The notes beneath the pieces were generated by a model. It searched no databases. It saw nothing but the letters and a program-made list of their open reading frames with translations, and was not told the origin of the DNA. DNA of 23,364 nt from Candidatus Falkowbacteria bacterium. Lineage in GTDB: Bacteria > Patescibacteriota > Patescibacteriia > UBA11705 > JABHMO01. The position numbers were made by a program, and so were the translations under genes. Shown piece by piece: positions 17,331 to 17,902 of this stretch (the first letter of the stretch is position 1; each line of letters begins with the position of its first letter). The stretch spans positions 1 through 23,364 of the forward strand of contig JABJLN010000028.1 in assembly GCA_018703365.1 (NCBI GenBank). The letters are read 5' to 3'.

Positions 17331-17396
17331 ACGAGTTGATGTTTAATTTATAATTTCCAATTTTTCAATTTTCATTAAATTTGTAATTTTCAATTT

Positions 17397-17795
17397 TCAA
17401 ACCTTTTTACCATCCAAAGAACTAGTTATCTTTTGAAAAATAAATACTAATTCTTGGACTTCATTTGCTAAATACTCTATTTTTTGTTTTCTACTAGAAA
17501 CAGCCTTCTTCATCATACGTAACCAATGCTTTGTTTCCTGCGCTTCCTTTTTACAAATATAAATTTTATTACGAAAATCTTTTTTTGAACTAGCACCATT
17601 TGCTTCCATATAATTCGCCCCAATAGAAGTTCCTGAACGAAGCAGCTGGTTCAATATTGGACGATTCATAAAACATTGTTGTATATTCTGGCACAAATCA
17701 ATAATATCCTCGCCGAACTTGGCAGTTCTTTCTTCTAAATCATATTTATTATTTTTTTTGTTATTATCAGTAATCATATTTGAAAATTTTATCAT
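17397..17795 (-). CDS. Four-helix-bundle protein (23S rRNA IVS-protein family, second subtype) inserted between the lexA promoter and lexA.
   Basis: DLEERTAKFGEDIIDLCQNI...NRPILNQLLRSGTSIGANYMEANGASSKKDFRNKIYICKKEAQETKHWL. Flanked on both sides by GAAAATT/AATTTTC repeat arrays in inverted orientation. Confidence 0.7.
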   Translation of the reverse strand: MIKFSNMITDNNKKNNKYDLEERTAKFGEDIIDLCQNIQQCFMNRPILNQLLRSGTSIGANYMEANGASSKKDFRNKIYICKKEAQETKHWLRMMKKAVSSRKQKIEYLANEVQELVFIFQKITSSLDGKKV

Positions 17796-17845
17796 TGAAA
17801 ATTTACTGTAAATTAGAAATTGTAAATTGAAAATTTTATTTTATA

Positions 17846-17902
17846 GTTCGGTTTCTGTTCGCATCTACTACCATTATACCGAACAGAAACCGAACGTCAA
17901 TG
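17846..17902 (-). promoter_or_regulatory. Promoter with an overlapping palindromic operator (candidate LexA box) for the four-helix-bundle/lexA unit.
   Basis: Minus strand cattGACGttcggtttctgttcgGTATAATggtagtagatgcgaacagaaaccgaac. This reads TTGACG, 16-17 bp, TATAAT. The perfect 16-bp inverted repeat gttcggtttctgttcg / cgaacagaaaccgaac brackets the -10, and each arm is GTTC-N7-GTTC. Confidence 0.5.

Follow-up and report, generated by a model that had tools for sequence, protein, structure and literature searches.

A four-helix-bundle gene framed by complementary heptamer arrays in the lexA leader of a Candidatus Falkowbacteria bacterium: a probable mobile cassette of the intervening-sequence type

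The function of the 'S23p', or four-helix-bundle (4HB), proteins and the origin of the rRNA intervening sequences (IVSs) have been open questions for about thirty years. Here, we describe an element built like such an IVS but located in the leader of lexA, at positions 17345 to 17835 (minus strand) of a window of 23,364 nt (contig JABJLN010000028.1; G+C content of 37%) from a Candidatus Falkowbacteria bacterium, a member of the Patescibacteria or candidate phyla radiation (CPR). Like the IVSs of the 23S rRNA genes of Leptospira and Coxiella that bear an open reading frame (ORF; 'S23p'), it encodes a PF05635 protein, has a size of the order of 430 to 490 nt, encloses its ORF between complementary termini that can form a long stem, and occurs sporadically among relatives (absent from loci L001, L002, L004, L005, and L007; present in the window, WIN, and in L003). 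A relative sampled in this study, L136, has heptamer arms and interrupts 23S rRNA at the classical helix-45 site. RNase III excision at such a stem has been shown for the Coxiella IVS (PMC4990558). The element is unlike rRNA IVSs in its host transcript, the 5' untranslated region of the lexA mRNA in the window and, for other copies, the spacers between operon genes or tRNAs. It also differs in its tandem-heptamer arms and in their covariation with the protein subfamily, two features absent from the consulted portions of published IVS descriptions. In its working, the element is comparable to the ORF-bearing IVSs, from whose defining location, in rRNA, it departs.

Other described systems are similar in part. 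Correia/NEMIS and ERIC elements are small, carry terminal inverted repeats, and reside in intergenic parts of transcription units in Neisseria and enterobacteria. According to De Gregorio and co-workers, their mRNA hairpins are reportedly processed by RNase III, which alters mRNA stability. The lexA-leader element shares small size, terminal inverted repeats, an intergenic position within a transcription unit, and a hairpin, here predicted. Unlike these elements, which are non-coding and combine many near-identical copies with fixed repeats and target duplications, it encodes a conserved protein and has arms that vary between lineages. A non-coding miniature inverted-repeat element was accordingly rejected as an interpretation because the protein is under purifying selection, the two copies of the window are only 21% identical, and no junction duplication was seen. 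The short tandemly repeated repetitive (STRR) sequences of heterocystous cyanobacteria are said to have been described by Mazel et al. in 1990 as intergenic tandem heptanucleotide repeats that accompany no particular gene. Like the arms described here, they consist of 7-nt units repeated in tandem in transcribed intergenic DNA, and such arrays also border the 4HB genes of Calothrix and Trichormus plasmids. The units differ from the three canonical STRR units and the taxon of the window is a CPR bacterium; we infer the link to STRR sequences from three plasmid loci. Finally, repetitive extragenic palindromes (REP/REPIN) with RAYT (IS200-like) transposases and integron attC cassettes also form hairpins at intergenic operon sites, and attC sites keep their structure while their sequence varies. 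Integron integrases are, in addition, under SOS control, and an IS200-like gene with REP-like hairpins was found in one lexA leader (L022, see below). In contrast to these systems, the element encodes neither a Y1 transposase nor an integrase, and its ORF is inside the loop rather than beside a palindrome.

The features of the locus, with positions in the window, are the following.

16728..17330, minus strand: lexA, with LexA_DNA_bind (PF01726) and Peptidase_S24 (PF00717) domains
17331..17344, minus strand: residue of the short native lexA leader, left single-stranded by the predicted fold and resembling the leader of the empty locus L002, AATTAACCA
17345..17401, minus strand: 3' arm, a GAAAATT-type heptamer array starting at, and covering, the stop codon of the 4HB ORF
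17397..17795, minus strand: hb1, the 4HB ORF, 132 aa, or 126 aa from the ATG at 17777
17779..17835, minus strand: 5' arm (RNA sense), an AATTTTC/AATTTAC/AATTTCT heptamer array reaching the start codon
17846..17895, minus strand: putative LexA operator pair, GTTC-N7-GTTC boxes at 17881-17895 and 17846-17860
17873..17900, minus strand: lexA promoter, -35 TTGACG at 17895-17900, 16-nt spacer, and -10 TATAAT at 17873-17878

An original prediction, made from the DNA sequence of the window, had placed a 4HB gene flanked by inverted repeat arrays between the operator-bearing lexA promoter and lexA, and this arrangement is borne out by the coordinates above; the sequence quoted for 17331-17870 and its flanks is present as given. 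The window was compared with lexA loci from 80 Patescibacteria/CPR genomes encoding LexA proteins 59 to 88% identical to that of the window (81 loci in total, 623 kb). Five loci with 78 to 88% LexA identity (L001, L002, L004, L005, and L007) provided empty sites, in which the promoter and operator are the same and the second operator box is located 10 to 31 nt from the lexA ATG. In the window and in L003, about 500 additional nt are present precisely between the operator and the lexA ATG, and the last ~17 nt preceding this ATG in the window resemble the native leader of L002. We therefore consider it very likely that a discrete cassette was inserted between the operator and lexA. A pre-existing hairpin split by the insertion was sought at the lexA junctions and none was evident.

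Searching all six-frame ORFs of the 81 loci with the family profile identified a 4HB ORF in 16 of the lexA leaders, always in the orientation of lexA and ending 28 to 127 nt before the lexA ATG. The only copy outside lexA leaders in the 623 kb is that of the hydrogenase operon of the window. In the occupied loci, the ORF is always located between complementary arms of 30 to 55 nt, the sequence of which varies from locus to locus. The 16 leader-borne proteins belong to several subfamilies in conflict with the LexA tree, at least three of which occur within a single LexA clade. LexA and 4HB identities are 83% and 30% for L008 and L011, 72% and 60% for L006 and L011, and 92% and 53% for L067 and L068, respectively. 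Between the window and L003, the synonymous divergence (dS) of the cassette is 0.88, whereas that of the adjacent lexA genes is saturated. The lexA leader was colonized repeatedly, as indicated by the contradiction between 4HB subfamilies and the LexA tree and by unusual arrangements in L010, L057, and L022. L010 (3680-3991) combines a 5' arm, an unrelated run resembling a 3' arm, a remnant ORF of 45 aa, and a third type of arm; L057 (1100-1225) contains two differing 3' arms in tandem, the second of which resembles that of L053. About 20 leaders of 70 to 270 nt (L014 to L050) contain GC-rich hairpins. These leaders, L010, and L057 look like relics of earlier insertions. The lexA leader of L022 (3316-3991, 676 nt) is occupied by an ORF for an IS200-like Y1 transposase (PF01797, E = 1.5e-28) with one and the same set of three REP-like hairpins on either side.

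The arms of the window cassette are arrays with a period of 7 nt in flanking spacers of 17% and 29% G+C. AATTTTC occurs three times in the left flank and 13 times in the whole window; the corresponding counts for GAAAATT are three in the right flank and five in the window. An arm score was obtained by aligning one flank locally with the reverse complement of its partner, with shuffled sequences and neighbouring genes as controls. RNAduplex computations on crude 110-nt flanks were abandoned, since z-scores were noisy and adjoining coding sequence joined the pairing. The arm score of hb1 is 58, compared to 22.8 ± 3.9 (maximum, 42) for dinucleotide-preserving shuffles of the same flanks, none of which (0/2000) reached 58. 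The inverted GAAAATT/AATTTTC arrays described in the original prediction are consequently not explained by AT-rich low complexity, the objection that the shuffled-sequence control addressed. The energy of the intermolecular duplex formed by the two arms is -18.3 kcal/mol (z = -2.8), a value reached by 4 of 300 shuffles. In the minimum-energy fold of a 581-nt transcript, the flanks pair around the ORF and the last ~25 nt upstream from the lexA AUG remain unpaired.

The identification of hb1 as a 4HB, IVS-type gene was upheld by profile scores above the cut-offs for both PF05635 (63.4 bits; cut-off, 33.8) and TIGR02436 (80.9 bits; cut-off, 24) and by an AlphaFold model (pLDDT 89) consisting of four helices (residues 11-30, 39-60, 65-92, and 94-123). 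The best matches of the model in the PDB, with TM-scores normalized to the target, are 2RLD (0.86) and 2GSC (0.83), followed by bAvd (4DWL). The frame of 132 codons proposed initially is present at 17397..17795; its start is less secure, as the first six codons fall within the 5' arm. The true start may be the second ATG, at 17777 (126 aa), and the NCBI-annotated homologue P0003 uses the equivalent position. A G-x2-R-x3-S-x3-N-x2-E motif is reported for the family in PMC3936711, and its R, S, N, and E residues are invariant in a 16-sequence alignment (A1), in which the hb1 sequence is LLRSGTSIGANYMEA. Comparison of hb1 with its L003 orthologue gave a dN/dS ratio of 0.08, and ratios of 0.07 to 0.23 were obtained for six pairs of 4HB proteins, revealing purifying selection. 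The hb1 subfamily comprises more than 7,900 database proteins at E <= 1e-5. PADLOC returned no match for the 4HB proteins.

The second copy in the window was predicted to have the same design with another repeat unit, which proved correct.

11302..11743, minus strand: second cassette, comprising a 5' arm (11712-11743), ORF hb2 (11336-11704), and a 3' arm (11302-11333)

This cassette fits exactly between the stop codon of the ORF at 11738-12211 and the ATG of the hydrogenase small subunit gene. Its arms consist of GTAAAG-type units, form a duplex of -30.7 kcal/mol, and score 40, versus 20 ± 3.4 in shuffles (40 was reached in 0/2000). hb2 matches PF05635 with 121.9 bits and is 21% identical to hb1. 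A relaxed profile search of the window disclosed no 4HB remnants beyond these two copies.

The architecture was further examined in an independent metagenome sample of 80 loci ranging from low to high G+C, drawn with the profile of one subfamily (alignment subset A2). All loci of the study are from metagenome assemblies, and neighbouring ORFs were called mechanically. Arm scores of at least 30 were obtained for 54 of 74 4HB genes versus 5 of 110 neighbouring genes (Mann-Whitney p = 2.6e-18). Together with the empty sites and the 16 occupied leaders among 81, this result strongly supports the proposal that the window copies belong to a family of small, stem-flanked insertion elements in transcribed regions. 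The arms are mostly tandem arrays, with a dominant period of 7 nt, recur in GC-rich taxa, and usually occupy the entire spacer from the stop codon of one neighbour to the start codon of the other. In 60 of 70 loci, the 4HB gene and its upstream neighbour share a strand. Purines predominate in the 5' flank in 55 of 92 loci and pyrimidines in none; arms of the hb1 type consistently display the opposite polarity to this purine-rich majority. One cassette (L136, 1-520), with (GGGGCGA)n and (TCGCCCC)n arms, interrupts a 23S rRNA gene at helix 45, the classical site of the 23S rRNA IVSs of Leptospira and Coxiella (PMC4990558). Another (L125, 260-833) is located between the genes for tRNA-Met and tRNA-Glu. 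Previous reports located genes of the 4HB family within cas operons (PMC3936711) and within rRNA insertions of CPR bacteria (PMC11270868); the searched passages of both sources mention no arms.

Additional loci provided observations of a more isolated nature. Complementary heptamer arrays accompany cyanobacterial plasmid 4HB genes in Calothrix (L170, 1400-1960; GGGTGTA/CTACACC) and Trichormus (L171, 1400-1900; TCAGAAT/ATTCTGA). The 4HB copy of the PCC 7120 gamma plasmid (L169), located beside IS elements, has no complementary arms. In Saccharibacteria (L168), two 4HB genes (2501-2866 and 4108-4509) are present in a single operon resembling a type IV secretion operon, and the second is followed by a long (TTTCAGA)-type array on its 3' side without a matching 5' arm.

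Arms travel with the ORF. Proteins 61 to 83% identical to hb1 (A3 alignment) are encoded among unrelated neighbours, always co-oriented with them: RNase Y and HU; Wzy-type genes; a type IV secretion cluster; a cupredoxin-like gene and a gene for a 729-aa protein; CTP-transferase and dehydrogenase genes; and genes for a LamG-domain protein and a large protein. In these six contexts and in L003, the arms are of the AATTTxx/xxAAATT type with the same polarity. Among 4,560 pairs of elements, the likeness of arms between elements had a median score of about 30 for protein identities of at least 60%, versus a background of 14 to 16 below this value, and the two arms of the same element had a median score of 38. 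Since likeness between elements fades below 60% protein identity while the pairing within each element persists, the two arms turn over completely but in concert.

The lexA promoter matches the sigma-70-type consensus at 11 of 12 positions and most of the 80 Patescibacteria loci have kept it upstream from lexA. Its -10 element is flanked by a perfect 16-bp inverted repeat (17846-17861/17880-17895), each half of which consists of one GTTC-N7-GTTC box. These two boxes are the only matches to this motif in the whole window, and they are also conserved at related lexA loci. The direct repeat GTTC-N7-GTTC is the LexA box reported for Alphaproteobacteria (PMC8565304), and the two boxes form a candidate LexA operator in the window. 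An independent lexA promoter close to 17330 was also considered: the consensus scan detected no sigma-70-like site on the coding strand between the 4HB ORF and lexA. In every occupied locus, a single conserved promoter is retained on the 5' side of the cassette. The 4HB gene and lexA would share this LexA-box promoter, because the cassette brings along no conserved promoter.

A perfect DnaA box, TTATCCACA, was found at 17909-17917 (minus strand), 8 nt upstream from the -35 element. GTTATCCACAG is kept at this position in the aligned close lexA loci and in most other loci read; in a subgroup, the DnaA box takes the form TGTGGATAA and is located 3' of the -10 element. Conservation of these boxes suggests a DnaA input into lexA transcription.

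Taken as a whole, we assign a probability of roughly 60% to the interpretation that 17345-17835 is an IVS-type mobile cassette co-transcribed with lexA. The unit would comprise a PF05635 gene and, on either side of it, inverted arrays of a heptamer specific to the lineage, an arrangement like that of the ORF-bearing 23S rRNA IVSs. It would have been inserted as such about 10 nt downstream from the second LexA box, into a lexA leader otherwise limited to 10 to 30 nt. Transcription of both genes from the LexA-box promoter would make expression of the cassette damage-inducible, and SOS control of the cassette is probable. In the transcript, the arms would pair as an imperfect stem of about 55 nt that encloses the ORF as a loop; the leader remaining to lexA would be short, unpaired, and almost native. 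If the rRNA copies are a guide, this stem would be a likely substrate of RNase III, separating the cassette RNA from the lexA mRNA, although for the window itself we put forward such processing tentatively. The heptamer arrays would probably also serve as recognition sites for movement, most plausibly by the cassette's own, presumably pentameric protein.

Several observations weigh against this interpretation. No target-site duplication was evident at the lexA junctions, where it was sought, and neither a transposase nor a near-identical second copy was seen. A TTTTCA-17-TATGAT sequence (9/12 matches) is present within the 5' arm, and AT-rich arms could hide a weak promoter. The hb1 stem is AU-rich and interrupted, with a longest unbroken helix of about 12 bp and -18 kcal/mol over a loop of about 380 nt, which renders RNase III cleavage uncertain. 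Mismatches in 71 stems comprised 103 G·U and 107 A·C pairs and 256 others (transversions). Selection for RNA pairing should favor G·U over A·C, so that the lack of a G·U excess weighs against selection on the sense RNA and leaves an RNA-level role of the arms conjectural. Rearranging the units within one arm lowered the arm score by a median of only about 7, with a significant effect in 13 of 46 loci, and much of the complementarity therefore sits at the level of the repeat unit. For the window element, the score of 47 observed in this test compares with 31 ± 4.5 after shuffling (p ~0.013).

Alternatively, the arrays might act primarily in DNA, as binding sites resembling transposon ends or as single-stranded DNA hairpins, with mobilization carried out by the 4HB protein or, in trans, by an enzyme of the host. 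The RNA stem would then be incidental and would take no part in processing the lexA transcript. The equality of G·U and A·C mismatches and the unit-level complementarity argue for this possibility, as does the association of arm type with protein subfamily. Heptamer periodicity, repeat numbers that differ between the two arms, and subfamily-specific units are not needed for a mere stem and are expected for arrays of recognition sites such as those of transposon ends. The IS200/Y1 transposase with REP-like hairpins in the L022 leader points in the same direction, since it indicates that the lexA leader attracts hairpin-associated DNA elements. On the other hand, the polarity of the arms is fixed relative to the ORF (the 5' flank is never pyrimidine-rich), 60 of 70 cassettes point in the same direction as the upstream gene, and RNase III has been shown by experiment to cleave rRNA copies at the stem (PMC4990558), all of which speaks for a role in the transcript. 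Moreover, the mirror order of the units counts in 13 of 46 loci, including the window. We consider a primarily DNA-level role rather unlikely. It is compatible with the mobile-cassette interpretation, from which it differs in the role of the arms taken to be primary. Roles at the RNA and DNA levels probably both exist.

The 4HB gene could alternatively be a host gene of the SOS regulon of Patescibacteria that stood first in the ancestral lexA operon and was repeatedly lost, with arms acting as a regulatory RNA structure. Its presence in 16 of 81 lexA leaders versus a single copy elsewhere in 623 kb, its constant orientation and position 3' of the operator, and purifying selection on the protein would fit this scenario. 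It is, however, improbable in view of the conflict between the 4HB and LexA trees, with at least three subfamilies in one LexA clade, and of the lower dS of the cassette than of lexA between the window and L003. In addition, the same subfamily with the same arms is found in six unrelated operon contexts, related cassettes occur in rRNA and in a tRNA operon, and arms are mixed or replaced in L010 and L057.

The accessory protein Avd of diversity-generating retroelements (DGRs) is a four-helix bundle that binds structured RNA and the polymerase of these systems. hb1 has a homologous fold resembling bAvd (4DWL, 8UB7), and hb2 weakly matches Avd models (28 bits for the NCBIfam Avd model against a cut-off of 80) and gave the sole 4HB match in PHROGs, to DGR Avd. 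We nevertheless rejected a DGR as very improbable, since no reverse transcriptase was present among the window ORFs scanned. Furthermore, hb1 does not match Avd-specific models, and neither a template/variable repeat pair nor a long direct repeat was found near the ORF. Chance likeness of two AT-rich spacers, which their low G+C content and the modest z-score of the duplex taken alone might suggest, is ruled out for practical purposes by the shuffles, by the sharing of arms with the L003 orthologue and six other hb1-type loci, and by the recurrence of the architecture in GC-rich taxa.

On the minus strand, the locus comprises, in order, a helicase fragment, a gene for an HD-domain protein, a major-vault-protein-like gene, two small ORFs, the DnaA box, the promoter, the 4HB ORF, lexA, an ORF of 154 codons, and a Y-family polymerase gene.

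16170-16634, minus strand: 154-aa ORF, beginning with MCAG, directly 3' of lexA

This ORF had no match in Pfam, NCBIfam, PADLOC, or PHROGs; its counterpart in L161 to L163 is a gene for a 155-aa protein. The spacer that separates it from lexA (16640-16727, minus strand) contains a hairpin, CCCGATAATCAGC/GCTGATTTATCGGG, with heptamer-like xxxTTAC runs on either side that may be relics of cassette arms. The vault-like gene (18677-21592, minus strand) encodes, in a CPR bacterium, a 971-aa protein with major-vault-protein shoulder and vault-repeat domains. It is missing from L161, which is otherwise syntenic with the window (helicase, HD, two small ORFs, 4HB, and lexA), and therefore looks inserted between the HD gene and the small ORFs. 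In the operon of the group-3-like NiFe hydrogenase, a gene for a pyridoxal-phosphate-dependent enzyme (PALP; 9499-10521, minus strand) separates the genes for the small and large subunits. An Rfam scan of the window revealed no known RNA family and no rRNA.

In the literature, of which much of the older work was out of reach, no description of heptamer arms or of mRNA-borne 4HB cassettes was found. As far as the searchable literature shows, the location in an mRNA leader, the lexA hotspot of CPR bacteria, arms made of tandem heptamers, and the joint change of arms and protein are apparently undescribed. We offer, as a tentative generalization, that PF05635 genes, rather than encoding scattered 'hypothetical proteins', may be both the cargo and the recognition protein of a very widespread and so far unrecognized class of minimal mobile cassettes, whose ends would be co-evolving, lineage-specific heptamer arrays. 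Such cassettes would reside in mRNA leaders, operon spacers, tRNA operons, and rRNA, with the rRNA IVSs as one special case; cyanobacterial STRR sequences would be arms or footprints, and the copies of Patescibacteria would home repeatedly to the lexA leader.

The ORF travels together with its complementary arms as a single unit; rRNA is just one of several kinds of host transcript for this unit, and the heptamer of the arms changes together with the protein. Accordingly, 4HB genes located in cas, hydrogenase, secretion, or SOS operons should not be taken as functional partners of these systems. In CPR bacteria, the gene for the SOS master repressor would often be transcribed through such a passenger, and, if the generalization is true, homing to the lexA leader would couple expression of the cassette, and perhaps its movement, to DNA damage.

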